Shown here piece by piece: positions 10,805-56,420 of a DNA stretch of 64,000 nucleotides. The position numbers and the translations under genes are program-made. This DNA is from a phage. Location: the sequence record PZ476263.1, one strand, 5' to 3'. Position 1 is the stretch's first letter, and each line of letters begins with the position of its first letter. The notes under the pieces are model-generated. The model was not told the origin of the DNA. It made no database searches and was given only the letters and a program-made list of their open reading frames with translations.

Positions 10805-11068
10805 TTATAGACCGAGAGCTTCCATTTCGTACTTTAAACCTTGCAGCGTACCATTAAAAATAACAGGTTTGCCCTCGACAGGTTGATTGATAAAAACCTG
10901 ATTAGTGACTTCATCAATGTAAGTTAATTCTTCTTTTATCAACGGCTCTTCAAAGACTTGCTTGTTGATCCCTGGAAGAACCATAAGGACAGCCATTGTC
11001 GCATCAGATCCAAATCCACATTCAACTGCTTTATCTTCTTCTCGGTTGTAAATCCAAATAGTTACCAT
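10805..11068 (-). CDS. hypothetical protein
   Basis: ORF track, 87 aa. Confidence 0.45.
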   Translation of the reverse strand: MVTIWIYNREEDKAVECGFGSDATMAVLMVLPGINKQVFEEPLIKEELTYIDEVTNQVFINQPVEGKPVIFNGTLQGLKYEMEALGL

Positions 11069-11358
11069 TCGATATCTCCTGCGATATTTTTAATTTTCTG
11101 AATTGCAGCCTCGCGATGTTGATTAGATAAAGAAAAATCTCGAATCACCATGTTGCCACTCAATTTTGTTTTACAGACATTAACAAAATTCTGTGCACAA
11201 TTCAAGGCTTCTTTTGCTTCTTCTGGATAAGCGATCTCGAACAATCTCCATTCATGCTCTAATTTTTCTTCGGATGTTTCTAGACATTCAAAGAAGTCTT
11301 CACGCAGTTTCTTTGGGAGGTAGTAAACTGCAAAACCTACGTAACGAAGGCTACTCAT
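11062..11358 (-). CDS. hypothetical protein, FFEDP...FP family member
   Basis: Motif REDFFECLETSEEKLEHEWRLFEIAYPEEA; start moved to internal Met (MSSLRYV) that forms an ATGA overlap with the upstream small ORF. Confidence 0.45.
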   Translation of the reverse strand: MSSLRYVGFAVYYLPKKLREDFFECLETSEEKLEHEWRLFEIAYPEEAKEALNCAQNFVNVCKTKLSGNMVIRDFSLSNQHREAAIQKIKNIAGDIEW

Positions 11359-11510
11359 CGGATATACCTTACAGCAGCAATCCCCAGCAATGCACCAGCA
11401 ATACACGATACAAATAGACTATCCATGACTGTAATGCCTGATAGGCCACATACTGTTGCGATAATAACAGAACCTGCATTAATGAACGCTACACGTTTTA
11501 CGGTTTTCAT
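11355..11510 (-). CDS. hypothetical small membrane protein (51 aa)
   Basis: Hand-translated MKTVKRVAFINAGSVIIATVCGLSGITVMDSLFVSCIAGALLGIAAVRYIR; hydrophobic; ATGA overlaps on both sides. Confidence 0.35.
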   Translation of the reverse strand: MKTVKRVAFINAGSVIIATVCGLSGITVMDSLFVSCIAGALLGIAAVRYIR

Positions 11511-11857
11511 TTTATTTCCTCATTAGTTTTGTAAAATTCTTTTTCTGCTTGCAATTCCATCCATGCAGACTTCCAAGCGCTCTTTATTCTCTTTGCAACT
11601 TCTGGGAATGATACATCCAAAAGCATAAACTCGTCAAGAGAAATTTTCAAAGGGTCTTCAAAGAAGTCTAAAATTTCTTTATCGACAGCGACCGCAAATG
11701 TAATACCTTTGTACCCTAAGTTAGTGGTCTTGTATGAATTATTAAACGCACCGCCGTATTTTGTTTCCAGCATATCAAGAATACTTTGCTTAGATGTTGT
11801 TACTGTACCGTTCAACATAGAAGGCGAAGCCTGTATACTATTGTTATAAAGTGTCAT
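11507..11857 (-). CDS. hypothetical protein, FFEDP...FP family member
   Basis: Motif ILDFFEDPLKISLDEFMLLDVSFPEVA. Confidence 0.5.
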   Translation of the reverse strand: MTLYNNSIQASPSMLNGTVTTSKQSILDMLETKYGGAFNNSYKTTNLGYKGITFAVAVDKEILDFFEDPLKISLDEFMLLDVSFPEVAKRIKSAWKSAWMELQAEKEFYKTNEEIK

Positions 11858-12300
11858 TTTCCATACATCTCCAAAAGTTTATGTTCCGCTTCATCTAAGA
11901 AGTATCCCATCTTCTCTATATGTACGCAAATTTCTGGGTACAGAGTCTTGAACATCTCATACTCGGAATCTTCAATTTCATTTGGATCCAAAAAGATATC
12001 TTCTAGTGCCACACGAACAGTCTTTCGAACCTCAGAGAAGTAATCGATATAGATCAGACGATTTTGCTTTTCCATGCAACTACGCCATTGCAGAGCGCAA
12101 GTGGAGAAAGCTGCATGAATACGTATATCATTACTTGTTTTTGGTCGTAAGAAAGATGCCTTCATTCCCGACTCAGGACTAGGCTCCTCTATCGTTAATG
12201 CTCCGTTTCCATTACCAAAAGCTTTCTTTCTCAGGTTGTGATTCATTGCTTTCTCAATGGACCAATCACGGATCAGACGTTCTAAAGTTTGTTTACTCAA
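11854..12300 (-). CDS. hypothetical protein, FFEDP...FP family member
   Basis: Motif DIFLDPNEIEDSEYEMFKTLYPEI. Confidence 0.5.
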   Translation of the reverse strand: MSKQTLERLIRDWSIEKAMNHNLRKKAFGNGNGALTIEEPSPESGMKASFLRPKTSNDIRIHAAFSTCALQWRSCMEKQNRLIYIDYFSEVRKTVRVALEDIFLDPNEIEDSEYEMFKTLYPEICVHIEKMGYFLDEAEHKLLEMYGK

Positions 12301-12842
12301 AATGGAATCTCCTCAATAATTTTCATAACAATCGTACCGTTTAATCTAGCCTTCTCCAATGCTCGGAAAGTAGGGAAGAAATCTTTATTCATATCCACAA
12401 GGATAAAATCATCACCGTAAACCATTTCAAAGAAGTCGAGTTCTTGATCTGTTGGGTGAGTTGCATTCTCAAACATTTCATCGATAACCAGTGTTGGCTC
12501 ATTTACCCGAAGAAGCTTTGAGCTAGTTTCTGAAATTTCCAGTATTGTAAGCTGCTCCGAGAAAACTGTCAAGTATTTTAAATCACCTGTTTTCTGATCT
12601 AAGTGAACCTGCATATAGTTCCTGTTTCTGCCCCAAGCCGAGATCTGAGGAAGCAACTCAAAAGATGCACGATTGCCGATCTCTTTACCTTGCTTAACCT
12701 TCTCTTCAATAAATTGGAAGAGTGGTTGGTGCTTAAGCCAATGATTCCAACCTATCCAACGTGCACCGCGACCATAATTATCCAGAATTGCCTTTTGAAT
12801 GTTACGATTACTCATAAAACCCCCAATAAAAAAGCCAGCCAC
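12297..12842 (-). CDS. hypothetical protein, FFEDP...FP family member
   Basis: Motif FENATHPTDQELDFFEMVYGDDF. Confidence 0.5.
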   Translation of the reverse strand: MAGFFIGGFMSNRNIQKAILDNYGRGARWIGWNHWLKHQPLFQFIEEKVKQGKEIGNRASFELLPQISAWGRNRNYMQVHLDQKTGDLKYLTVFSEQLTILEISETSSKLLRVNEPTLVIDEMFENATHPTDQELDFFEMVYGDDFILVDMNKDFFPTFRALEKARLNGTIVMKIIEEIPF

Positions 12843-12862
12843 CTTTCAGTGACTGGCTAGAA

Positions 12863-13339
12863 TCAGCTACTAATCACCACGAATAGGGTAATTATAGCGT
12901 ATACAATTGCGATTGCAAGAAAAACTTTACTAATTGGGTCATCGGTTAATCTCTTGATCCTCCCAAAGAATGTTGCTTTGGCTTTGTGCTCCCTCTCCAT
13001 CTTGTGAATCAAGACGATAAGGGAGTTTATATGAAGTTCGTCAGCACCTTGTGCGAAGGGTGTGTACTTGAATGTACCTTCTGAGTTCGCCATAAAGCTG
13101 CTGTGATACTTTTTGCCATCATAACTTTCGATGATAAGACCATCCTTAATCACCCGATAACTGACAGAACGGAATTTATCATAAAAAACATATGACCTAA
13201 AACCTTCAGAGTCGGGAGAACTTTTTCTGACATAGCCGTCGAAAAATTCCAATCTCTTTCCAGAATTAAGTTCCATGTTGTCAGCTAACATAGGGAGTTG
13301 ATTTACGTATGTGTAGAACATATGGATCACCCCTTCCAC
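12863..13339 (-). CDS. hypothetical protein with C-terminal transmembrane anchor
   Basis: 158 aa; C-terminal hydrophobic VFLAIAIVYAIITLFVVISS. Confidence 0.45.
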   Translation of the reverse strand: MEGVIHMFYTYVNQLPMLADNMELNSGKRLEFFDGYVRKSSPDSEGFRSYVFYDKFRSVSYRVIKDGLIIESYDGKKYHSSFMANSEGTFKYTPFAQGADELHINSLIVLIHKMEREHKAKATFFGRIKRLTDDPISKVFLAIAIVYAIITLFVVISS

Positions 13340-13517
13340 TAAGCTGGGGTCATTTTATCATATTATGAAAAAATACAACAGAGAAGATCACTATGTTTTA
13401 TCATATTGTGAATTTTTACAACATTCGTGTTAAAGTGGTATTAATTAAAATAAATAGATTTTAATACATAGAAAATACCTATGAACCAGATCTGATCCAT
13501 AGGCATTACATTTTTAT

Positions 13518-14102
13518 TCATTTTCGAAGAGAAGCTTTCTCTAAAACTAAGGATGTTCGAGGTTCAGCCAATCCTGTGCCATAAACATACCAATCACCGC
13601 TCAAATTTTGCCTTGCACCATAGGAACCGAGTTCAACTCCTCTGTATTTAACATCGTAACCGCCGTTTTCAGATACGATGACCATGTTATCAAAATCTAA
13701 ACCTAAGTGATTCAGGAGTTGAGTCATTTCTCTTGCCATATCTAAGCTCTCCATATTTCCTGACTTCTTATCCTTTGTGGGCTGGTAAAGCTCAAGTTTC
13801 AAAAATACATTTTGATGAATATCGTCAAGCTCGGCCTCGTCACGATAGCAAGGTGTCAGTGCCTGTAATTTTCCAGCAGGTAGGATTCCATCTTTTTCAA
13901 GCTGTAAAAAAGATTGCTCGGCGGAAGCAACAGCGCTTTTGCCGTTTGGCTGTTTAATTCTACCATCTTTAACGTCATCAGGGCAAGTTTTGGACATCAC
14001 ATCTTCATCAACATAACCTGGGACAGTTGTTTTTTCAAACCCTCTCTGCTCCCAAAAGTAAGAGGCTTCAAAAATAACCGCTAAACTAATTGGACTGTTC
14101 AT
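13518..14102 (-). CDS. seryl-tRNA-synthetase-like class II catalytic core fragment (truncated)
   Basis: TPCYRDEAELDD...FLKLELY matches class II motif 2 (SerRS TPCFRSEAGS...), and YGTGLAEPRTSLVL matches motif 3 (SerRS GSGLAVGRTLVA); only 194 aa, no tRNA-binding arm. Recalled motifs, not searched. Confidence 0.5.
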   Translation of the reverse strand: MNSPISLAVIFEASYFWEQRGFEKTTVPGYVDEDVMSKTCPDDVKDGRIKQPNGKSAVASAEQSFLQLEKDGILPAGKLQALTPCYRDEAELDDIHQNVFLKLELYQPTKDKKSGNMESLDMAREMTQLLNHLGLDFDNMVIVSENGGYDVKYRGVELGSYGARQNLSGDWYVYGTGLAEPRTSLVLEKASLRK

Positions 14103-14111
14103 GTTATCTCC

Positions 14112-14618
14112 TTAGCGTTTACCGTTTTCAAATGCACGTTTGGTTATAGATGACATTTTGATCAGATCGTCTAATGTCACACCCTCATGGCTACTTTTTA
14201 GATAGCCTTCAATTGCACCGATCAAATCAGAAAGCTCTACCAGCTCCATGATCTTGCATCCTTGACTTTTGGCATCCAGTAATTCTTGAACCTCTTCAAG
14301 AATTTTTTCTGCTGTACCATATTGATGCTTTTCAATTTTAGCAAGATGATAACCGACAGATTTAGGATTTCGAGTGCTCGCTTCGAAGTTTCCACCAGCA
14401 ACATACCAATTCTTGTTGATAGTTACTATAAAAACTCCAATATCTTTTACATTGATACAGCTATAATCTTCACATGCCGACTTTGTTGTTTCAAATGGAT
14501 AATTGTCATCAACGCCTTTTTCTGCGACGAGATTCAACTTCAATCCGTGCATATCGAGCACACCGTTACGTCGTGCAACTTCCAGCAGATCTCGGTATTT
14601 GATTTGTTTATTTTTCAT
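14112..14618 (-). CDS. hypothetical protein
   Basis: ORF track, 168 aa. Confidence 0.45.
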   Translation of the reverse strand: MKNKQIKYRDLLEVARRNGVLDMHGLKLNLVAEKGVDDNYPFETTKSACEDYSCINVKDIGVFIVTINKNWYVAGGNFEASTRNPKSVGYHLAKIEKHQYGTAEKILEEVQELLDAKSQGCKIMELVELSDLIGAIEGYLKSSHEGVTLDDLIKMSSITKRAFENGKR

Positions 14619-14644
14619 TTTATCCTCTTTTTTTTTTGTTTAGA

Positions 14645-15130
14645 CTATGAAGCAGGCATACACCCCAACATTCTCCAACAATAATACCTTGTATTTTTAT
14701 CATGGTCAATATGATTTACGGGTCCTATCCTATTGCAACCGCAACATTTTTTCTCCTCTCTTAGATAATCTATGCTACAAGAGTGTGGGTGGTCGAAAGC
14801 ATCTCTCATCTCGAAACATAATTCAAGAAGCCACTTGAACCTCTTGGGGTAAGCAACTGAAAGCAATTCAAGTTCTTGAAAAGTAGGATTAACTGGGTCT
14901 TCAAAAAAGTCAAGCATGTCTTCATAAAGTATAACATTCTTAACTTTACCATTCTCAATTTCATAGGAGAAATCTTCTGTTAACCTTACCGTAACCTCTT
15001 TTACAAATAATTTATCTTCCTCATTTCTTCCCAGGTGGTCTTCGATCCATTTTATAACGAAGAATCTGCTTCTTTGAACATCCATGTTCAAAATTTCAAG
15101 CATATCTTCAATGCTTAAAGGTCTTTCCAT
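14645..15130 (-). CDS. hypothetical protein, FFEDP...FP family member with Cys/His-rich C-terminus
   Basis: Motif MLDFFEDPVNPTFQELELLSVAYP plus C-terminal CCGCNRIGPVNHIDHDKNTRYYCW. Confidence 0.5.
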   Translation of the reverse strand: MERPLSIEDMLEILNMDVQRSRFFVIKWIEDHLGRNEEDKLFVKEVTVRLTEDFSYEIENGKVKNVILYEDMLDFFEDPVNPTFQELELLSVAYPKRFKWLLELCFEMRDAFDHPHSCSIDYLREEKKCCGCNRIGPVNHIDHDKNTRYYCWRMLGCMPAS

Positions 15131-16242
15131 ACCTGATCCTGTGCCTTTATAATCAAAGCCTCCGCAATTTTCAAATCACTTCGTTTAGGCAACTTTGTAG
15201 TCTTGTACAATTCACCACGGATCTCATTATCTTTCTTTTCTGCCCATTCAACAATCTCTTCGTAAGTTTTTGCACCGTTACGAATAGATAGTAGCTCTTC
15301 TGCATCTGGTCGCTTAACAATCACGTTACCAGTTCGAAGAATTTCTTCACCCATACGAAGAAGTCGTACAAGATGCATTGCATGTTTTGTGTCAAAACCG
15401 TACTTAACTTCAAGCTCGTGACGTTTTGCATTCCGGTTCTCTACCCATGTCCAATAATTACGATGTTTCTCTTTAGCTAAGTTGTGTTCTTGACGAAGAT
15501 ACTTAACGATAAACAGCGGACAGGTTGTTTTAACATCATCTCCGATTTTGTCGTATTCGAGAGCACGGATTGAACCATCCGGATTAAACATTGATGCACT
15601 TTCGAAATATGTCGACACAACACCATAAATATCTCCACCATAAGGGACCAACGTACAAAAATCATTCATGTTTCGTAATTTACGCGTGAAGACTTCATGG
15701 CTCATAACAGGATCGGATTGTAAATAACTTTGTACCAGTCGCATATAATCAAACTGGGTGGGCATTTCTTTCGGTTGCGGGTTGTTAATATGCTTATTGT
15801 GACCCTTGATCCGTTTTAACTGAGCCATAGCATAACCGCTGAAACGAAAAGCAACATTACTGTTCAACAGTTTGTGGAGATTCTCTTTAATGCCAAACCA
15901 AGCCTCATGCTCGTACAAAGTGGATTCTTTGTCTGTGAATCCTAATTCAATGATGTTTGGATTCATTTCTTTAAAAAGCGTCATGAATGTACCAAGTTCA
16001 TAAACCTTACCATCCTCTTCACCCTCAATGTTTAATTCGGTGACTGTTTTGAAAGGTGTACGAACAATATTTTCTTTTGCCACGAAGATCCCACGGATGT
16101 CTACATCACTTCCTTCCATGTTAGTCCCATAAGCATGTGATCCCGATAATGTCAGAAGAAGAACCTTCGCCACGTCTGGATGTTTTTCCAGTTTCTCTAC
16201 GATGCTTTTTACCTTTCCAGCACTCACAACAGAATTTGCCAT
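15115..16242 (-). CDS. nucleotidyltransferase-fold protein (Pol-beta-like GS...DxD)
   Basis: N-terminal LSGSHAYGTNMEGSDVDIRGIF fits the G-S-x(9-13)-D-x-D minimal nucleotidyltransferase signature; 375 aa; substrate unknown. Confidence 0.5.
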   Translation of the reverse strand: MANSVVSAGKVKSIVEKLEKHPDVAKVLLLTLSGSHAYGTNMEGSDVDIRGIFVAKENIVRTPFKTVTELNIEGEEDGKVYELGTFMTLFKEMNPNIIELGFTDKESTLYEHEAWFGIKENLHKLLNSNVAFRFSGYAMAQLKRIKGHNKHINNPQPKEMPTQFDYMRLVQSYLQSDPVMSHEVFTRKLRNMNDFCTLVPYGGDIYGVVSTYFESASMFNPDGSIRALEYDKIGDDVKTTCPLFIVKYLRQEHNLAKEKHRNYWTWVENRNAKRHELEVKYGFDTKHAMHLVRLLRMGEEILRTGNVIVKRPDAEELLSIRNGAKTYEEIVEWAEKKDNEIRGELYKTTKLPKRSDLKIAEALIIKAQDQVWKDL

Positions 16243-16332
16243 TTATCCTCCAATCATTCTTATCACAGAGGCCAACCCAGTTGGCCTGTTTTATTTTTAT
16301 AAAGTATACGCAACTAGTGCAATCTTTTTTAC

Positions 16333-16722
16333 TTATAGGCATTGTACACCATAAAGAATCAACATAGCCACCATTGCGAGTACGTAAGTTAAGCTCAGAT
16401 AAATTTGATAACCTTTGATTGTTACTTCTTTTTCAAAAGATCGGTAGTTGCTATAAATAACACCCACCCAATGAACGGCTAAAATTGCATATCCCAGATC
16501 CGAACGTGCCCAATCTGCAAGTGAGTAACTACAATACATTGCCAGACCAGATAGAAACAGTCCAAAAATAATATTCATGGGACTTCGCTCTTTTACTTTC
16601 ACGACTTGATTTTCTAACTCTTTTGATTTTACTTTGTAATAACAACTCACTAAAACTTGGACAATTGCCCCGAGAATAAAGAAAGCAAGCAGAGCTACAT
16701 ATTGTGAAGTTGGTGCAGTCAT
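16333..16722 (-). CDS. hypothetical integral membrane protein
   Basis: 129 aa with several hydrophobic segments. Confidence 0.45.
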   Translation of the reverse strand: MTAPTSQYVALLAFFILGAIVQVLVSCYYKVKSKELENQVVKVKERSPMNIIFGLFLSGLAMYCSYSLADWARSDLGYAILAVHWVGVIYSNYRSFEKEVTIKGYQIYLSLTYVLAMVAMLILYGVQCL

Positions 16723-17108
16723 TAAATATCCCCTTCTAAAATATCGTTGATAAGATCTAAAATTTCAAGTTCTGAATTACCGTTGGACAAAATCATATTG
16801 AGTCTTTGCACAACTCCGTCTCTAAACATCACATGATTAATTTCCCCTTTACCTCTTAAACTACTCACCATCTGTTTGTATCGGATGTGTTCAGTATATT
16901 CTTCTTTAGACATCGTTGTCAATGCATTTCTGCTGTTTCTTAAAAATACTTTTCCAGTATCCCAATCAAACCCTTGCCGGACGTAATCAACCGTAACAGC
17001 TGAGTTAGCTCCTATGGTTACTGTCCCGCTCTCAACAGGGATAACCACTTCAAAGTCTTCATTCACCGTACCTAACAGATCTCTCAATTCTCTTACTTTC
17101 ATAGTCAC
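16722..17108 (-). CDS. hypothetical protein
   Basis: ORF track, 128 aa; stop/start overlap. Confidence 0.45.
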   Translation of the reverse strand: MTMKVRELRDLLGTVNEDFEVVIPVESGTVTIGANSAVTVDYVRQGFDWDTGKVFLRNSRNALTTMSKEEYTEHIRYKQMVSSLRGKGEINHVMFRDGVVQRLNMILSNGNSELEILDLINDILEGDI

Positions 17109-17542
17109 CCCTTCAATTTCATCTTTTTAAATTCATATACAAACCTTTTTTCTTGTGGTGTAAGTTCTTCATTTCCGATAACCTCACCCTCCTTGTTTAC
17201 ATAGGTGTTCCAAAGCTTCTCTGGCAAAACAAAAGCGATTGCGGTAAGAGCGCCGTTCAATGCATGTTGTTCCTCATGAAAATATGTAAAGGGGATTTCA
17301 TCGGCAATAGGTAAAATAAATTCATCAGTAAAATCATACATTGCCTTCTGATACCCACCATTCAATAAAATCATAGTTTCATCTTTAGTTACCCACTGCT
17401 TCATTAATTTAACTCGGCAGTCGTCAGGATCAACATTTGTTGAATAATTGTGTACCAGCCGACATGCTGCATGGGCTGCTTGGATACCTGCCTGAATACC
17501 AGAAATGTATTGGTTAACAATCACGTACATACGGCTCTTCAT
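17105..17542 (-). CDS. PTH2-like peptidyl-tRNA hydrolase (tentative)
   Basis: MYVIVNQYISGIQAGIQAAHAA resembles the PTH2 core (V-x-V-x-D/N-L-x-M-G-K-G-K-I-A-A-Q-C-S-H-A-A); recalled. Confidence 0.4.
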   Translation of the reverse strand: MKSRMYVIVNQYISGIQAGIQAAHAACRLVHNYSTNVDPDDCRVKLMKQWVTKDETMILLNGGYQKAMYDFTDEFILPIADEIPFTYFHEEQHALNGALTAIAFVLPEKLWNTYVNKEGEVIGNEELTPQEKRFVYEFKKMKLKG

Positions 17543-17553
17543 TTCACCTCCTC

Positions 17554-17898
17554 TTACTTAACACCAAAAAGTCGTTTAGAAAAACTGCCAGACTTAAACA
17601 AATAGTTGAACAAAACTATCAAAGAGTAAATAGTCCATACAAAAACATAAGTGAAAACTAAAAATCCCCAAGTGAAAGGCCAAAATAATGCATAACCTAC
17701 AGATTTAAACAGTAGAACATTATAATCGCTTTCCGTCAACTGGTCCTCTTTTAATTCTTTAAAGGCAACGATCGGTTCACCTGGTGGCATGATCAATTGG
17801 AAACCTTTTAGGCGTGCACGTACTAGAGCGATATAAAACACATTCAAAAATAATGCAATGGCAAAATAAGCCGTAACATACGTGGTGATATCATTCAT
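17554..17898 (-). CDS. hypothetical membrane protein
   Basis: 114 aa, two or three hydrophobic helices. Confidence 0.4.
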   Translation of the reverse strand: MNDITTYVTAYFAIALFLNVFYIALVRARLKGFQLIMPPGEPIVAFKELKEDQLTESDYNVLLFKSVGYALFWPFTWGFLVFTYVFVWTIYSLIVLFNYLFKSGSFSKRLFGVK

Positions 17899-17908
17899 AT
17901 TCTTTCCC

Positions 17909-18235
17909 TCAATTATCTTTCATGTTAAATATTTTTCTTGCTAATTTTTCATTACCGATAGTAATTTGCCATAACCGGATTAGAAGAGTTAGCGCACAAA
18001 CTATCAGGTAGAACAAAATCAAGAAGGCCCACCCGAAAGGCCAAAATACTGCCATCACTAGCCACCCAATCATCAAGGCATTCCAATTAATCCTCCCCCT
18101 ATTTAAAGGGTCCAATAGATTACCACCATTCTTTGCAGGTAAAGGTATATAAAACCCACATTGCCGTAATTTTATTAAAATGAACCACACACCTGCACTT
18201 ATAATAACCCCTAAAAAATAAACTAATATGCTCAT
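17909..18235 (-). CDS. hypothetical membrane protein
   Basis: 108 aa, hydrophobic; similar architecture to 17554..17898. Confidence 0.4.
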   Translation of the reverse strand: MSILVYFLGVIISAGVWFILIKLRQCGFYIPLPAKNGGNLLDPLNRGRINWNALMIGWLVMAVFWPFGWAFLILFYLIVCALTLLIRLWQITIGNEKLARKIFNMKDN

Positions 18236-19506
18236 ATTTCTTTCTCCTCCTCTTCTTTCAGTTTTAATTTTATCTCGGCAAGTGCCTTCTTAACATAACC
18301 TACTTTGAGGTCCCTTACTTTTGAACGAATAACTTCTGGTCGTCCTTTGAATTTTTCAGCGATATCTTTACTCTCTTCAGAGATAGCTACACTGTTTTGA
18401 GTAATCCCTGCCAGTGCTGAATATAATACTTCAACAGAGTCGTACTTGTCAAACATTTTTTCTTCCCCACGTCCTCGTGCATCACAAAGACAAGCCTCTG
18501 CAAACTTCCCAAAAAATTCTTGGTCTTTTTCTCCACGTAGCCGATAGATAAGGTCATACACGGAGGTTGCTTTCATATCTTTGATTCTATGCATACGTGT
18601 ATGTTCTTCGGTCACAATCATGGCAAGCTTTTTCCAACTATTTGGAACACCCATACGATCACAAAGTTCTTCAACAATCGGAACTCCGTATTGTTCATGA
18701 CCATGAAGCTTTTTATCTCTCCAATAAATACTCTTCCCTAGGTCATGACAAAGAACAGCCCACTTAACATCCGGCGGTGACATGATCTTTTGAGCGTAGT
18801 CCAAACACAAAAAGGTATGGATCAGTGCGTCACCTTCTGGATGGTGTTTCTTCGGCTGCTCAACATAATGAAGATTGAACAGCTCAGGAAATTCACCAAG
18901 TCCTGTCAAGAAGCGGAACATAAGGCTAGGCTTATTCTTCTCAGAGTTATCCATGAGACATTTATTAATCTCTGCCCACTTGCGTTCTTTTGGTAGGTAC
19001 TTAACTTGAGCATATCCATTAAAACATGCAGTTAAAGTATCAGGGTGGATACTGAAATCATCACCATATCGAGCATATAACCTTGCAAGTCGATAAATAC
19101 GCAAAGGGTCTTCTTGGAATGCAGTTTTGGAAACACACCGCAAAGATTTTTGCTTTAGGTGCTCAATACCTCCAAATGGATCAATATACTCACCTGTTTC
19201 GAGGTCTTTTGCAATAGCGTTGATAGTTAGGTCGCGTCTTTCCAAATCTTGTTCGATAGTCACATCTGGAGAAAACACAACTTCGAAATCATGATAGCCA
19301 GGTCCTGTTGATTTTTCAGTACGGGCCAGTGCATATTCTTCTTTTGTTAACGGATCAAGGTATACAGGAAACGCCGCCCCCACTTTTGTAAATCCCTTTG
19401 CGATCATTTCTTCATGGGTTGAGCCGACGACAACATAATCTCGGTCTTTACTTTCAACACCCAGAATCTCGTCACGTACTGCACCACCAACTAAATAGAT
19501 TTTCAT
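18232..19506 (-). CDS. tRNA nucleotidyltransferase (CCA-adding enzyme) with HD domain
   Basis: N-terminal LVGGAVRDEILG (GGxVRD head motif), internal RRDLTINA, and HD-domain motif CHDLGK. Confidence 0.7.
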   Translation of the reverse strand: MKIYLVGGAVRDEILGVESKDRDYVVVGSTHEEMIAKGFTKVGAAFPVYLDPLTKEEYALARTEKSTGPGYHDFEVVFSPDVTIEQDLERRDLTINAIAKDLETGEYIDPFGGIEHLKQKSLRCVSKTAFQEDPLRIYRLARLYARYGDDFSIHPDTLTACFNGYAQVKYLPKERKWAEINKCLMDNSEKNKPSLMFRFLTGLGEFPELFNLHYVEQPKKHHPEGDALIHTFLCLDYAQKIMSPPDVKWAVLCHDLGKSIYWRDKKLHGHEQYGVPIVEELCDRMGVPNSWKKLAMIVTEEHTRMHRIKDMKATSVYDLIYRLRGEKDQEFFGKFAEACLCDARGRGEEKMFDKYDSVEVLYSALAGITQNSVAISEESKDIAEKFKGRPEVIRSKVRDLKVGYVKKALAEIKLKLKEEEEKEI

Positions 19507-19835
19507 ACTTTTTCCCCTCTTAAATTTACAGACCAGTCATCTACTTGATTTTTCCAGTCATCGTTTAATCTTCTAACCACTTTTTCACCACGTATGTACA
19601 TTAACAGATCCACAGGGTGCTTGTCAATAAAAGACACTTCATATTTTGGGTCATAACTCATGGAGAGCATTCGGATGATCCGGCTATGTTCTAAAGCCCC
19701 ATCTTCCTTTTCTACACTGATAACCTCATACCCTTCCCATGATTCTTTTATGTATATGATTCTACAAGCTACATCGTAGCCTCTTAACTCACCACGAGAA
19801 CTGAACACAGGTTTATATATTAAATGATATTTCAT
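19503..19835 (-). CDS. hypothetical protein
   Basis: ORF track, 110 aa. Confidence 0.45.
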   Translation of the reverse strand: MKYHLIYKPVFSSRGELRGYDVACRIIYIKESWEGYEVISVEKEDGALEHSRIIRMLSMSYDPKYEVSFIDKHPVDLLMYIRGEKVVRRLNDDWKNQVDDWSVNLRGEKV

Positions 19836-19887: not shown

Positions 19888-19918
19888 CAAAAAAGGCCAC
19901 CCGAAGGTGACCTTTAAA
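19888..19918 (-). terminator. rho-independent terminator
   Basis: Minus-strand hairpin aggtcacc-ttcg-ggtggcct followed by TTTTTT, immediately after the stop of 19920..20429. Confidence 0.55.
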
Positions 19919-19919
19919 T

Positions 19920-20429
19920 TTAAGGATTTACCCAATAGAAGGGCTTATCCAATCCTAGTTTTCCCTGCTTATCCCAAACGAAATAGGCATAAGCTGCACC
20001 ATCTGTTTTACCGTTATCGGTAAACGATGGACGCTTTGAAAGAGTGATCAAGTGATCCACCGGATACTTTTTCCAAAACTCAACTCGCTTTGTACTCTCA
20101 AGAAAACCTAAACGAAGTAACATGATAATCACATCAGCATCTTCATGTGCTTTCTCTACAAACTCCTGAGCCAAACAGTAAGGAGGGTTCGTAATAATGC
20201 AATCTACACGATTGTATTTTGTAGAAAGGTAATCAACACCTTCACGAATCTCTCCCCACGCAGAACCGATAGGTAATTCATTGTAGAATCTTCCAGATGC
20301 TCGGCAAGGTTCCAGATATGTCCAGTCATTTCTAATCGGTACGATATCTAAAAGGCAATCAACTGCCCACTCCGGAGTTTCATAAAGATCATATGCATTT
20401 CGTTCTGCTTTCGGCTTCAACGCTGCCAT
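19920..20429 (-). CDS. small N6-adenine-type methyltransferase (NPPY motif)
   Basis: CIITNPPY motif IV of amino-methyltransferases; 169 aa; DNA versus RNA target unresolved. Confidence 0.45.
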   Translation of the reverse strand: MAALKPKAERNAYDLYETPEWAVDCLLDIVPIRNDWTYLEPCRASGRFYNELPIGSAWGEIREGVDYLSTKYNRVDCIITNPPYCLAQEFVEKAHEDADVIIMLLRLGFLESTKRVEFWKKYPVDHLITLSKRPSFTDNGKTDGAAYAYFVWDKQGKLGLDKPFYWVNP

Positions 20430-21280
20430 TACTGATTAACCCCCTTTTTGATTTCAGTGATAAGAGTATCGATAGCTTCTTCCCAATTCAACTCATTCAG
20501 CTGAAGACCAAAACACTCCCCGATCTCATCGATCTCTTCTAAAGTGTACTCATTGAAGTCTTTAGGGTTAATGTCGAAAATGTTGAAGGCTTTTGTATAT
20601 CCGCAGTCCAGTTCAATTGTAAACGAACCTTCGAGAGATCCTTCTTTTTCTTCAGTAACTTCAGGACTCGGTTCGACTGCCGTTTCAACTTGTGACTCCT
20701 CCTGTTCCTCGACTTCAATCTGTTTTTTAATGATCTTGTCTTCTTGTTCAAGACGTGCTTGCATTTCTTCATGATCGAAATAGATTTCACCAGACCGTTC
20801 AAACAGCTCGGCAATTTCTTCAGGTGTCATGATGTTTTCATACATCGGCAGATATTTCTTTTTAAACAGTTTACGATAAAAATCTGTACGTGTCACCAAA
20901 TGGGCCATATCACCACCAAAACCCAACTGAACGTTGTGGAACATGTAATAAGAACCTGGACGACAGATTCGAACATGCCCTGCTAAGAAAATACCCGTTG
21001 CAGCACTTGCAACTTCACCGATCCCGTGGGTAACCACTGTTGCTTTACTTTCAGAGATGGCTGCGATGTACATGTCTTCTACATTACACAAACCGCCGCA
21101 GGATGTTACATAAAGATTAATAATGTCACCTTCCGGCGCTGTACGGATCAGGTCTACAACTTCGACATGTTGATTTGGTGAATCACCCAACTCAGTTACA
21201 TACACACGCCATTCAGTAGAGGTATGTGGAGTTGCCCAAATGTTACTCTTTTGCGGTAAAGTCATTTCCATCTCAGACAT
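20429..21280 (-). CDS. ClpP-like (S14) serine peptidase domain protein with acidic C-terminal extension
   Basis: HGIGEVASAATGIFLAG (Ser region) and YYMFHNVQLGFGG (His region) resemble the ClpP catalytic core; C-terminal ~120 aa are Glu-rich. Confidence 0.45.
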   Translation of the reverse strand: MSEMEMTLPQKSNIWATPHTSTEWRVYVTELGDSPNQHVEVVDLIRTAPEGDIINLYVTSCGGLCNVEDMYIAAISESKATVVTHGIGEVASAATGIFLAGHVRICRPGSYYMFHNVQLGFGGDMAHLVTRTDFYRKLFKKKYLPMYENIMTPEEIAELFERSGEIYFDHEEMQARLEQEDKIIKKQIEVEEQEESQVETAVEPSPEVTEEKEGSLEGSFTIELDCGYTKAFNIFDINPKDFNEYTLEEIDEIGECFGLQLNELNWEEAIDTLITEIKKGVNQ

Positions 21281-43656: not shown

Positions 43657-44457
43657 TTAAAAACCTCCCAGCTTTGCTTCAAAATATGTCAGCGGCTTCA
43701 TGATCTTGCCATTGCAATCTTTCCAGACTACACGATTAACACCGTTGACTTTCACAACATTACCTTTAACACCAGTATATCGACCCTTGTTACGTTTTTC
43801 AATAAGATCAGATTCCAGTTGAATCATCTCTTCAAGAGCTACATCATTCTCACTGAAATAGAAGTGCTGCTTGTAAAATTCCTTGTTGAATTCTTCAACT
43901 GTAGGAATCTTAGAATCATTAGAGTCAAGGACTTCTTCAAGTGCATCAATATAATCGAAATTAAATTTACGCATGATCTCAATTGTGTTTCGAACAACGC
44001 CGTTCGCCAGTTGTTGTCCAACATAATAAGTAAGAATGCTTAAGTTGTCAAAGATGTCTGAATTTTTCTCTGTGACGTAAGGAAAAATATCATATGGTCC
44101 ATCTTTATAAGTTTCATGCAAGCTTCGAGTTTGAAAATCTGCATAAACAGAAACAACGAAAAGATCACACAGTGCATCAATGACTTCTTTACGATTATTT
44201 TTACTAATGCCGAGTTCGTAAAGCTCATTATATTCTTCTTCTACAAGCTCCCACTGAAAGAGAAGCTCGGATGTGGATAGGGCGTGTTTACCACGCGCTG
44301 CAAAATTCCAATCAATAACACGCTGTGCACATTGAGAAACTTTTTCATTTTCGTCAATCTTTAACAGACTGCTAACAAATTCTTTCTCTTTAGTGTTCAT
44401 TTCTAGGAAATCAAACATCATACTCTCCTCTTTCTTAAGTGCAGGGCCATTATACAT
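43657..44457 (-). CDS. hypothetical protein
   Basis: ORF track, 266 aa. Confidence 0.45.
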   Translation of the reverse strand: MYNGPALKKEESMMFDFLEMNTKEKEFVSSLLKIDENEKVSQCAQRVIDWNFAARGKHALSTSELLFQWELVEEEYNELYELGISKNNRKEVIDALCDLFVVSVYADFQTRSLHETYKDGPYDIFPYVTEKNSDIFDNLSILTYYVGQQLANGVVRNTIEIMRKFNFDYIDALEEVLDSNDSKIPTVEEFNKEFYKQHFYFSENDVALEEMIQLESDLIEKRNKGRYTGVKGNVVKVNGVNRVVWKDCNGKIMKPLTYFEAKLGGF

Positions 44458-55341: not shown

Positions 55342-56420
55342 TAGAATACATGATGTCTCGTCTTCGTTCCAGTTCTTCTTACCCTTCACGAATGGTAATT
55401 AGTTGTAACCCTGATCCTGATCATTATCTTCGTAAGATGGTTGATTGGTATCTCGATAAGGATGGTTATCCTGATCCTACAAAGGATGGAGTCATTCGAT
55501 ATTTCGTTCGAGTTGATGACCAATACATGTGGGGCGAATCAGTAGAAGAGCTTAAGAAGCGGTACGGTAAGAAATGTAAGCCTGTTTCTTTTACATTTAT
55601 ATCTTCTACTATTTACGATAACCCACCAATGCTTATTAACAACCCAGACTATCTAGCACAGCTGGAAGGTCTTAATGAGGTTGACAGAGCAAGACTGTTA
55701 CACGGCAACTGGGATGCACGTCCTCAGGGTGCTAACTATTTTAAACGTTCTTTTCTTAAAGAGGTTGATGTTCTTCCTTTAGGTGTAGATAAGGTTAGAT
55801 CATACGATAAAGCAGGAACTGAACGTTCTACAGGTAATAAAACACCTGACTTTACAGCCGGAATCGGTGTGGCGAGAGATCAGGACGGAATTTATTATCT
55901 TTTTGGCGATTATTGTGAAGAGTTTGTTGATGAAGGTGATTGGTCTACTGGCAACCTTGGTAGGTTCTGTAAGAAAGCTGGTGAACGAGATACGATCATT
56001 ATGAAACAAGCAATTCATGACGGTGATGATGTTAGAATAATATTCCCTGTTGACCCTGGTCAAGCGGGTATTGCTGAATTCACTACATCTTCCCGAGAAT
56101 TATTAAATCAAGGATTCATTGTTGAGAAAGACCCAACTCCTGGTAACAAGAAGAAGCTTGTACGCTTCTCTCCGTTTGCTAACCTTGCTCAGAACGGATT
56201 TGTTAGGATTGTTAAAAAGTCTTTCCCTTTGGATACCTATGAAGCATTAATGAAAGAGCTTGAATCTTTCAATGGTGAAAGGTCAACAGGGACACGTAAA
56301 GATGACTGGGTGGATGCTATCTCAACCGGAATAAATTTCCTTGAGAAAACAGAAATAGTCAGGGCTGTTACAATACCACGACCTTCTGCCCCAACACTTT
56401 ATTCGAAGTATCGACGATAA
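55342..56420 (+). CDS. terminase large subunit, exon 3 (remaining ATPase and nuclease domains)
   Basis: Continues in phase (L)EYMMSRLRSSSSYPSRMVISCNPDPDHY…; 359 codons to TAA at 56418-20; immediately upstream of the portal gene. Confidence 0.65.

Follow-up and report, generated by a model that had tools for sequence, protein, structure and literature searches.

A phage gene block that joins a candidate tRNA-end enzyme set with a minimal synthetase-like core and its HisE/MazG-like partner

Introduction

In a comparison of jumbo phages, the RNA-repair components that phages encode include RlaP, CCA-adding enzymes, Thg1 and PTH2, and PTH2 has thus been noted in large phages before (PMC7824862). 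A 2025 preprint reports that a bacterial (Pseudomonas) RlaP adds one or two nucleoside monophosphates (NMPs) to damaged RNA 3'-OH ends and can restore the chargeability of repaired tRNA (PMC12776372). Genes for RlaP are typically found beside those for RNA ligases (PMC12776372, PMC7824862). Here we describe a gene block of a phage, located within a window of 64,000 nucleotides (64 kb; sequence record PZ476263.1), which is the whole stretch of DNA that was analysed. The block carries genes for a CCA-adding enzyme, a PTH2-fold protein and RlaP, and ends with a gene for a small synthetase-like core preceded by one for a HisE/MazG-like protein.

The acceptor end of tRNA is a site at which toxins act. 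Antiphage toxSAS enzymes pyrophosphorylate the tRNA 3'-CCA end and a phage hydrolase reverses this modification, and GNAT toxins acetylate aminoacyl-tRNA (PMC11559606). MenT toxins are reported to lengthen the tRNA acceptor end. These reports are relevant to the explanation of the block that we favour, and hold with somewhat more confidence than doubt, namely that it joins a set of enzymes for tRNA ends with an independent two-enzyme unit.

A first-pass annotation of the window had read four of the encoded enzymes as a tRNA maintenance or repair module that, together with the phage tRNA genes, could counter host nucleases that target tRNA. The four open reading frames (ORFs) are present at the coordinates it gave, on the minus strand, and profile searches, together with a predicted structure for the PTH2-like protein, bear out its family guesses for all four proteins. 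Thus, its observation is confirmed and its interpretation is partly supported, since the block joins units that are conserved separately.

Results

Linkage of the enzyme genes

There are five genes on which the argument rests, and they are listed here in the direction of transcription, with protein lengths in amino acids (aa).

18232-19506, minus strand: class II CCA-adding tRNA nucleotidyltransferase with C-terminal HD phosphohydrolase domain, 424 aa (profiles, motifs).
17105-17542, minus strand: PTH2-fold protein, 145 aa, phrog_3668 'hydrolase' (predicted structure, weak Pfam match).
15115-16242, minus strand: RlaP-family Pol-beta nucleotidyltransferase, 375 aa, GS...DVD (Pfam, PHROG).
14112-14618, minus strand: 168-aa protein with a HisE/MazG-like domain at residues ~88-168, phrog_6408 (profiles, invariant EExxE...ExxD).
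13518-14102, minus strand: minimal SerRS-type class II synthetase-like core, 194 aa, phrog_4806 (motifs 1-3, TAE-like SAEQSF motif).

There are 80 viral loci with a PTH2-fold gene in our survey of its neighbourhoods, for which a distance of 3 kb was used. Within this distance, a CCA gene is found in 15 loci, a RlaP gene in 12 and a gene for a Thg1-like 3'-5' polymerase (PF04446, E 1e-26; for example at 12538-13296 of locus L105) in 12, and at least one of the three is found in 28 of the 80. The combination of CCA and RlaP genes seen in the window accounts for 11 of these 28 loci. In Rheinheimera phage Barba8S and Vibrio phage TDDLMA, the CCA gene directly adjoins or overlaps the PTH2-fold gene, and in PVP-SE1 the PTH2-fold gene is located two small genes away from the CCA gene, with a RlaP gene downstream. 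The 12 loci with a Thg1-like gene have no CCA or RlaP gene nearby; in these, the same hydrolase is paired instead with an enzyme that repairs tRNA 5' ends. Because CCA enzymes, RlaP and Thg1 all act on tRNA or RNA termini, the neighbourhoods of the PTH2-fold gene fit a function in the repair or recycling of tRNA ends.

The survey of the synthetase-like core also comprises 80 loci, all of them viral contigs that encode this protein. The HisE/MazG-like domain is found in 78 of them, always on the same strand and with either gene order. Its gene lies within 150 nucleotides (nt) of the core gene in 59 loci and within 1 kb in all but one. The two genes are adjacent in phi92 (gp197 then gp196), in Caulobacter phage CcrPW (gp447 then gp446), in Acinetobacter phage KARL-1 and in UPEC06, and gp131 of Microcystis phage Ma-LMM01 is a fusion in which the HisE/MazG-like domain forms the C-terminus of the core. 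Among the 150 best representative clusters, nine or more contain such fusions, and this frequency suggests that core and partner act as a complex in one pathway. No third constant partner was found when same-strand neighbours within 4 kb were clustered, the next family reaching a maximum of 9 of the 80 loci. Within 10 kb of the core, CCA, RlaP and PTH2-like genes are found in 8, 8 and 6 loci, respectively, and any of them in 16. A tRNA gene is located within 10 kb in 28 loci and there is no clear isotype signal, but this count lacks a proper background rate and we have set it aside as evidence.

These observations divide the proposed tRNA maintenance or repair module. The proposal is supported for the CCA enzyme, the PTH2-fold protein and RlaP, which share recurring neighbourhoods, but not for the core, whose constant partner is the MazG-like protein. 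The core and this partner form an independent two-enzyme module that has so far been seen only on phage or phage-like contigs, and in the literature that could be searched we came across no report of the pair.

Two further observations concern the surroundings of the pair. In a metagenomic contig of 1.04 Mb, whose source could be either a cell or a phage of very large size, the MazG-like and core genes overlap (7751-9611 of locus L169) and a gene for an R2K-type ATP-grasp protein (PF14243) on the opposite strand overlaps the end of the pair by 4 nt. In addition, two neighbours present in seven of the 80 core loci each (12490-12963 of L017 and 10443-10895 of L014) resemble, by eye only, NADAR/YbiA-type and DUF4326-type proteins, both with a link to the processing of ADP-ribose.

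The tRNA-end enzymes

Profile matches identify the product of 18232-19506 as a class II CCA-adding enzyme with an HD domain, as had been proposed. The PF01743 (PolyA_pol head) match scores 70.7 bits against a cut-off of 23 (E 2e-19) and the PF01966 match to the HD domain scores 29.7 bits against a cut-off of 22 (E 9e-7). The protein also matches phrog_2244 (E 3e-130) and, end to end, the NF008137 'multifunctional CCA addition/repair protein' (E 3e-112), although the NF008137 score of 375.5 bits is below the equivalog cut-off of 451 and therefore indicates a homologue rather than an equivalog-level match. Solved CCA enzyme structures match its head and neck at ~1e-16. Class II CCA enzymes are defined by the motifs GGxVRD, DxD, RRD and EDxxR, and the translation carries GGAVRD (residues 7-12), DRD, RRD and EDPLR, followed by CHDLGK in the HD domain. 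The first-pass annotation had relied on two of these signatures, GGAVRD and HDLGK.

The 375-aa protein with a GS...DxD motif, described earlier simply as a nucleotidyltransferase, is assigned by its profile matches to the RlaP family of RNA 3'-end nucleotidyltransferases. PF10127 (RlaP) matches with 59.4 bits against a cut-off of 23 (E 6e-16), in an alignment that covers profile positions 10-140 of 249 only, and phrog_388 matches end to end (E 9e-78). The motif GS...DVD is readable in the translation: LSGSHAYGTNMEGSDVDIRG.

The product of 17105-17542 is predicted to have the PTH2 alpha/beta fold. Its AlphaFold model, for which 42 homologues were present in the alignment, has a predicted local distance difference test (pLDDT) score of 93.5. 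The eight best matches of this model in the PDB are all PTH2 members (E 2e-5 to 7e-4), with 1xty giving an E-value of 2e-5 and a template modelling (TM) score of 0.6-0.7. The earlier naming of this protein as a PTH2-like candidate is therefore borne out by its predicted structure, and we regard the protein as a candidate aminoacyl- or peptidyl-tRNA ester hydrolase with a divergent active site. Several features count against this assignment. With Pfam PTH2 (PF01981) the protein scores only 16 bits (E 0.014), below the cut-off of 23, and its family is acidic, with a median isoelectric point (pI) of 5.0. Where PTH2 has its canonical lysine, the phage proteins appear to have Q or H, and no register yields a conserved Lys. 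We take the catalytic residues of Sulfolobus solfataricus Pth2 to be a Lys and an Asp, and an invariant Glu of the phage family, E90, may replace this Asp. An hhalign comparison of the family with human PTRH2 gave a probability of 1.7% and a register that conflicts with that of HMMER.

The synthetase-like core and its partner

The ORF at 13518-14102 encodes a complete class II synthetase core that is nearest to SerRS. There are more than 1,400 representative clusters of this family at 50% identity and their members are 175-200 aa long, so that the 194-aa protein has its native length. Hence, the core is not 'truncated' as had been thought, and we rejected the possibility that it is a truncated pseudogene. 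The other elements of its earlier description, which are the SerRS-like class II motifs and the lack of a tRNA-binding arm, have held up. The family alignment reveals a motif 1 of GFxxxxVP with an invariant proline, a motif 2 of TPCYRDE...FLKLE and a motif 3 of GTGLAEPR, and an invariant SAEQSF aligns with the 'TAE' motif of SerRS. The invariant residues are S60/E62, R87/E89, F100, E104, E157/S160, T176 and R182. In our reading, they correspond to the SerRS residues that contact ATP, magnesium and the side chain of serine in the Thermus thermophilus enzyme. Because all catalytic positions are conserved, the core would be expected to form an aminoacyl-adenylate, most likely with serine or another amino acid of comparably small size.

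Other features separate the core from a conventional tRNA synthetase. The protein starts ~15 residues ahead of motif 1 and has no N-terminal coiled-coil arm, and it scores 21.2 bits with the serS model TIGR00414, for which the equivalog cut-off is 301.65. Its predicted structure (pLDDT 95) finds the catalytic domains of PylRS as the best Foldseek matches. The family is acidic, with a median pI of 4.9 and a net charge of -10, and its motif-2 loop has only 12 residues with a net charge of -4. In canonical synthetases, this loop contacts the acceptor stem. Most members have no appended domain. Among the exceptions are CcrPW gp446 (3752-4606 of locus L007), which has an N-terminal helix-hairpin-helix (HhH) domain resembling the C-terminal domain of the RNA polymerase alpha subunit (PF03118, E 8e-6), and some proteins (P0179, P0114 and P0068) with Cys-rich, zinc-ribbon-like C-terminal tails. 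To our knowledge, the core is among the smallest natural class II catalytic cores.

Two alternative identities were considered for the core. Its PHROG and GenBank labels name it HisRS or HisZ, but HisRS/HisZ is not its nearest family by structure or sequence, it has no anticodon-binding domain, and its catalytic arginines are invariant, unlike those of HisZ. It was also compared with amino acid:[carrier protein] ligases of the Bll0957 type, but its neighbour is a HisE/MazG-like domain and not a carrier protein.

This neighbouring domain was overlooked in the first-pass annotation. The ORF at 14112-14618, directly upstream of the core gene, encodes an N-terminal lineage-specific extension of ~87 aa followed by a helical domain of 80 aa that belongs to phrog_6408. 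The domain scores 20.9 bits with PF01503, just below the cut-off of 21.3, and this profile is matched by 24 of 30 family members (E <= 0.1). The best PDB match of the family is HisE 2a7w. Residues E22, E23, E26, E42 and D45, which form an EExxE...ExxD pattern, are invariant across the 30 sequences and align with the corresponding motif of 2a7w. This invariant metal site argues that the partner is a nucleoside triphosphate (NTP) alpha-beta pyrophosphohydrolase. We had also considered an acyl carrier protein, owing to the sequence 'ELSDL' in the 80-aa domain, and rejected this reading because many members (including those of CcrPW and Ma-LMM01) have Ala or Thr in place of the serine and because the acidic residues are the invariant ones.

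Layout of the block

The window is part of the genome of a large myovirus related to Vequintavirinae. The closest GenBank phages are UPEC06, A73 and A5-4, with ~81% nt identity across ~500 bases of a 7-kb query. All window ORFs of at least 200 aa were assigned by family scan, except for that at 20429-21280, which was assigned by synteny. These scans place the block in a long minus-strand stretch rich in nucleotide-metabolism genes, including those for NrdD, PhoH, NrdA/B, ThyX, 5'-nucleotidase, dNMP kinase and DNA ligase. By synteny with UPEC06, this stretch also encodes a DNA methyltransferase and a ClpP-like protease. The plus strand carries structural genes and five tRNA genes from ~51 kb on.

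There are eleven genes in the block, which runs from 19835 to 13518 on the minus strand with gaps of -16 to +26 nt and one exception of 90 nt. Stop and start codons overlap in four gene pairs. In Escherichia phage UPEC06 the block is syntenic with an identical gene order, which indicates that the clustering is conserved and is not a chance juxtaposition. The remaining features of the block and the hairpins that flank it are as follows.

19892-19915, minus strand: terminator-like hairpin, 10-bp stem with T-run; likely end of the preceding methyltransferase/ClpP unit.
19503-19835, minus strand: 110-aa protein, phrog_12008, function unassigned; first gene of the block, whose stop overlaps the CCA start by 4 nt, as in UPEC06.
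17909-18235, minus strand: small membrane protein, 108 aa, phrog_17692 (PHROG match), paralogue of the product of the next gene.
17554-17898, minus strand: small membrane protein, 114 aa, phrog_17692 (PHROG match).
16722-17108, minus strand: 128-aa protein, phrog_12566 (PHROG match), function unassigned.
16333-16722, minus strand: 129-aa membrane protein, phrog_12739 (PHROG match).
14645-15130, minus strand: 161-aa protein, phrog_12113, with Cys/His-rich C-terminus; overlaps the RlaP stop by 16 nt.
13474-13507, minus strand: terminator-like hairpin, 15 bp, 11 nt past the stop of the synthetase-like gene; likely unit end.

The block is probably one operon-like, co-transcribed unit of a Vequintavirinae-like myovirus. 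The two bracketing hairpins, one just upstream and the other just downstream, are treated as suggestive because the terminator scan yielded 10 hits where shuffled sequence gave 5.3, or ~2 times expectation, and this yield counts against reading them as firm boundaries.

The phage tRNA genes are located 32 kb from the block on the opposite strand, and the 3'-CCA is encoded in all five that are called with confidence. Thus, the phrase 'together with the phage tRNA genes' in the first-pass annotation does not describe a physical association, given the distance and the other direction of transcription. We likewise rejected the possibility that the CCA enzyme is required for maturation of the phage tRNAs, and the encoded CCA favours repair over maturation as the role of this enzyme. 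There is a sixth tRNA-like sequence at 50967-51045 on the plus strand, which was found by Rfam only (35.8 bits), was not called by ARAGORN and lacks an encoded 3'-CCA. Possibly it is a degenerate tRNA, one with an intron or one of some other unusual form, and would need CCA addition.

Several other features were observed in the window. A Cys-rich ORF of 73 aa (16121-16342, minus strand; CxxC...C...CxxC) overlaps the 5' end of the RlaP gene in a different frame and may encode a genuine small zinc-binding protein; a similar Cys-rich ORF is present at the matching place in one viral locus (7700-8011 of L009). Five small minus-strand proteins (11062-11406, 11507-11857, 11854-12300, 12297-12842 and 14645-15130) share the C-terminal motif F(F/L)EDP..P(T/S)..E(L/F)..L...(Y/F)P. 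Two of them match phrog_21419, and the set resembles a paralogous family. RCC1-like beta-propeller repeats (PF25390/PF00415) are found in three consecutive minus-strand genes at 3923-7208, which encode proteins of 380, 416 and 328 aa. The 266-aa protein encoded at 43657-44457 (minus strand), adjoining the DNA ligase gene, matches phrog_671 'nucleotide pyrophosphohydrolase' (E 8e-18) and is unrelated to the HisE/MazG-like protein. Finally, a group I intron (Rfam RF00028, 78.7 bits, E 2.5e-18) is located at 54986-55290 on the plus strand, directly upstream of an ORF (55293-56420) that matches the terminase large subunit profile at positions 279-624 of 642 only, which is its C-terminal part. It therefore appears that a self-splicing intron interrupts the terminase gene.

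Discussion

Function of the tRNA-end enzymes

The gene identities, predicted folds, conserved motifs, linkage counts and fusions of the block are observed here, and from these we infer all catalytic activities and all links to host defence. The CCA enzyme, the PTH2-fold protein and RlaP would keep tRNA ends usable during infection. By analogy with Escherichia coli Cca, the CCA enzyme would rebuild a lost 3'-CCA, and its HD domain would clear 2',3'-cyclic or 3'-phosphate ends. RlaP would add one or two nucleotides to damaged RNA 3'-OH ends, as shown for bacterial RlaP. Judging from its fold and neighbourhood, the PTH2-fold protein might strip an acyl, aminoacyl or peptidyl group off the tRNA 3' end and thereby release the tRNA for reuse or repair. 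The target of the set would then be injury to the acceptor end, such as exonucleolytic trimming, extension, or acylation or phosphorylation by toxins.

The kind of injury can be narrowed further by what the window encodes. To counter tRNA-targeting nucleases in the classic sense, a phage must both heal the ends, with a kinase/phosphatase, and seal them, with an RNA ligase. A search of the window ORFs of at least 200 aa, which covers 64 kb of the genome, revealed no gene for an RNA ligase, polynucleotide kinase/phosphatase or RtcB. Thus, the countering of such nucleases put forward in the first-pass annotation loses its support in this classic form, since the route for repairing anticodon-nuclease cleavage is unsupported within the window. 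The absence of a ligase and kinase makes damage or blockage of the acceptor end the likely target, and cleaved anticodon loops a less likely one.

Some observations weigh against assigning the three proteins to tRNA ends. There are 52 PTH2-fold loci among the 80 that have no CCA, RlaP or Thg1 gene within 3 kb, and the RlaP gene described here has no RNA ligase gene within the 64-kb window. The scope of the analysis, which is 64 kb of the phage genome, is also to be considered.

Another possibility is that the tRNA-end enzymes are housekeeping boosters. Heavy phage translation would raise both peptidyl-tRNA drop-off and 3'-end turnover, and the phage would top up the Cca and Pth of its host. 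The enzymes match host housekeeping activities, the phage has tRNAs of its own, and family scans revealed no defence-specific domain in the block. However, the host already has Cca and Pth, and the recurrent company of RlaP and Thg1, which act on damaged or truncated RNA ends, suggests injury instead (PMC12776372). This explanation is compatible with the one that we prefer, and we consider it possible but doubtful.

Function of the core and its partner

For the second unit, we tentatively propose, with clearly less than even confidence, an undescribed two-enzyme system. The ~180-aa core would pass an activated amino acid to a non-canonical acceptor, which could be a nucleotide or a tRNA or RNA end recognised in a new way, and the pyrophosphohydrolase would process a nucleotide substrate or product. 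In this scheme, the core would activate a small amino acid and the partner would cleave an NTP-type substrate between its alpha and beta phosphates. A normal tRNA acceptor is disfavoured by the lack of an arm or anticodon-binding domain, the acidic nature of the family and the acidic motif-2 loop. We lean slightly towards a nucleotide or other small molecule as the acceptor, rather than a normal tRNA, because of the logic by which phages pair a pyrophosphohydrolase with a modifying enzyme, as in T4 dCTPase with dCMP hydroxymethylase and in MazZ with PurZ in Z-genome phages. The tRNA-dependent DNA modification by Mom was set aside as a parallel, since Mom is an unrelated GNAT enzyme.

Perhaps the core is instead a true minimal tRNA-charging enzyme that relies on trans-acting or appended RNA-binding domains, with a partner that acts on a translation-linked nucleotide such as an alarmone. 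The pair would then keep tRNA charged and mute the starvation response of the host. All SerRS catalytic and serine-contacting positions are kept, the best Foldseek matches are PylRS catalytic domains, which themselves bind tRNA, and RlaP, CCA or PTH2-like genes are near in 16 of 80 loci. A YqeY/GatB-like gene adjoins the core in phi92-type loci, and this gene, like the HhH domain of CcrPW gp446 and the zinc-ribbon-like tails found elsewhere, hints at a polynucleotide substrate and so counts against the small acceptor that we prefer. The charge of the family and of its motif-2 loop argues in the other direction, most members have no appended domain, and an obligatory, often fused NTP pyrophosphohydrolase has no known role in charging. 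We consider this explanation somewhat unlikely.

A purely metabolic role is also conceivable, in which the partner makes or consumes a particular (d)NMP or (d)NTP, the core ligates an amino acid to the nucleotide, and the product is a modified nucleotide or a signal mimic. Obligatory pairing and frequent fusion are typical of consecutive steps in a pathway, the partner is nearest to HisE, which acts on a base-substituted ATP, and the proteins have acidic surfaces. The block is furthermore located in a region with genes for NrdD, NrdAB, ThyX, dNMP kinase and 5'-nucleotidase. However, no such aminoacyl-nucleotide product is known, the module is spread over phages of very different DNA chemistries and hosts, and the HhH, zinc-ribbon and YqeY associations suggest a polynucleotide. 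Such a role is therefore unlikely in this specific form.

The block as a whole

We regard as improbable the idea that all four enzymes form one tRNA repair pathway, in which cleavage by anticodon nucleases of the PrrC/RloC, PARIS or retron type is reversed and the core recharges the repaired tRNA. Each of the four proteins can be tied to tRNA by its fold or family, synteny of the block extends to UPEC06, and RlaP has been proposed to restore the nucleotide removed by RloC-type nucleases (PMC12776372, PMC7824862). These points are outweighed by the lack of ligase, kinase/phosphatase and RtcB genes noted above, by the core's linkage to CCA, RlaP and PTH2-like genes in few loci compared with 78 of 80 for the MazG-like partner, and by a core that has neither the SerRS arm nor an anticodon-binding domain and carries an acidic motif-2 loop.

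A chance gathering of unrelated accessory genes in a hyperplastic early region, with no function shared among the four tRNA-like proteins, is very improbable and largely refuted for each of the two units taken separately, because CCA/PTH2-fold adjacency recurs in unrelated phages, a tRNA-end enzyme is encoded within 3 kb in 28 of the 80 PTH2-fold loci and the block genes are tightly coupled, although six block proteins are of unassigned function or membrane type, and the independence of the core pair from the tRNA-end genes in most lineages leaves chance as an option for the juxtaposition of the two units.

On our preferred explanation, the CCA/RlaP/PTH2-fold trio offers a concrete, testable case of phage tRNA repair in which the evidence points to the acceptor end. 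This end is the target of recently described antiphage toxins, by toxSAS pyrophosphorylation, MenT/AbiE extension and GNAT acetylation. The pair of core and pyrophosphohydrolase is the more valuable result and is worth experimental follow-up. If our proposal for it is true, it represents a new function for a synthetase paralogue, and its chemistry bears on the uses to which phages put activated amino acids beyond ordinary translation. The family, with its native class II core of ~180 aa, also bears on how small a functional synthetase can be, and the widespread annotation of such genes as 'histidyl/seryl tRNA synthetase' would be corrected.

Comparison with known systems

The CCA, RlaP and PTH2-fold genes are new members of known families and are already annotated in this way in relatives. 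The CCA enzyme resembles the E. coli type in having a GGxVRD/DxD, RRD and EDxxR head followed by an HD domain, and differs in being encoded by a phage and in the coupling of its gene, across several phage lineages, to that of a PTH2-fold protein. The RlaP protein shares with its family (PF10127, which includes T4 NrdC.11) an N-terminal GS...DxD nucleotidyltransferase domain, a helical C-terminal region and a similar total length. It departs from the family in its surroundings, since there is no RNA ligase adjacent or elsewhere in the window and its neighbours are instead the CCA enzyme and the PTH2-fold gene.

The PTH2-fold protein has the predicted fold of archaeal and eukaryotic PTH2 (S. solfataricus Pth2, 1xty; human Bit1, 1q7s), with a Foldseek probability of 1.0 and TM scores of 0.6-0.7, and common to both groups are the helix motif Q..HA and a conserved acidic residue that follows the central strand. 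However, the phage protein has only 11-16% identity to PTH2, falls below the Pfam cut-off, has Q or H in place of the catalytic lysine, carries an extra C-terminal helix and is acidic.

The partner of the core has the ~80-aa helical domain and the metal-binding acids EExxE...ExxD of HisE (PF01503) and MazG (PF03819), but it has invariant GYH and T..AF..G.R motifs of its own, and it is linked or fused to a class II core and not to HisI. The core resembles SerRS in what would be the first half-reaction, yet it is not a SerRS, given the absent arm and a serS score far under the cut-off. The SerRS catalytic domain has ~300 aa compared with ~190 aa for the core, in which insertions are trimmed, the arm is gone and the motif-2 loop is short and acidic, and the HisE/MazG-like partner is obligatory for the core. 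The class II paralogues that do not act as tRNA synthetases (Bll0957, 3mey; HisZ; AsnA; EpmA/GenX) are larger, at ~275-380 aa, and none of them is paired with an NTP pyrophosphohydrolase.

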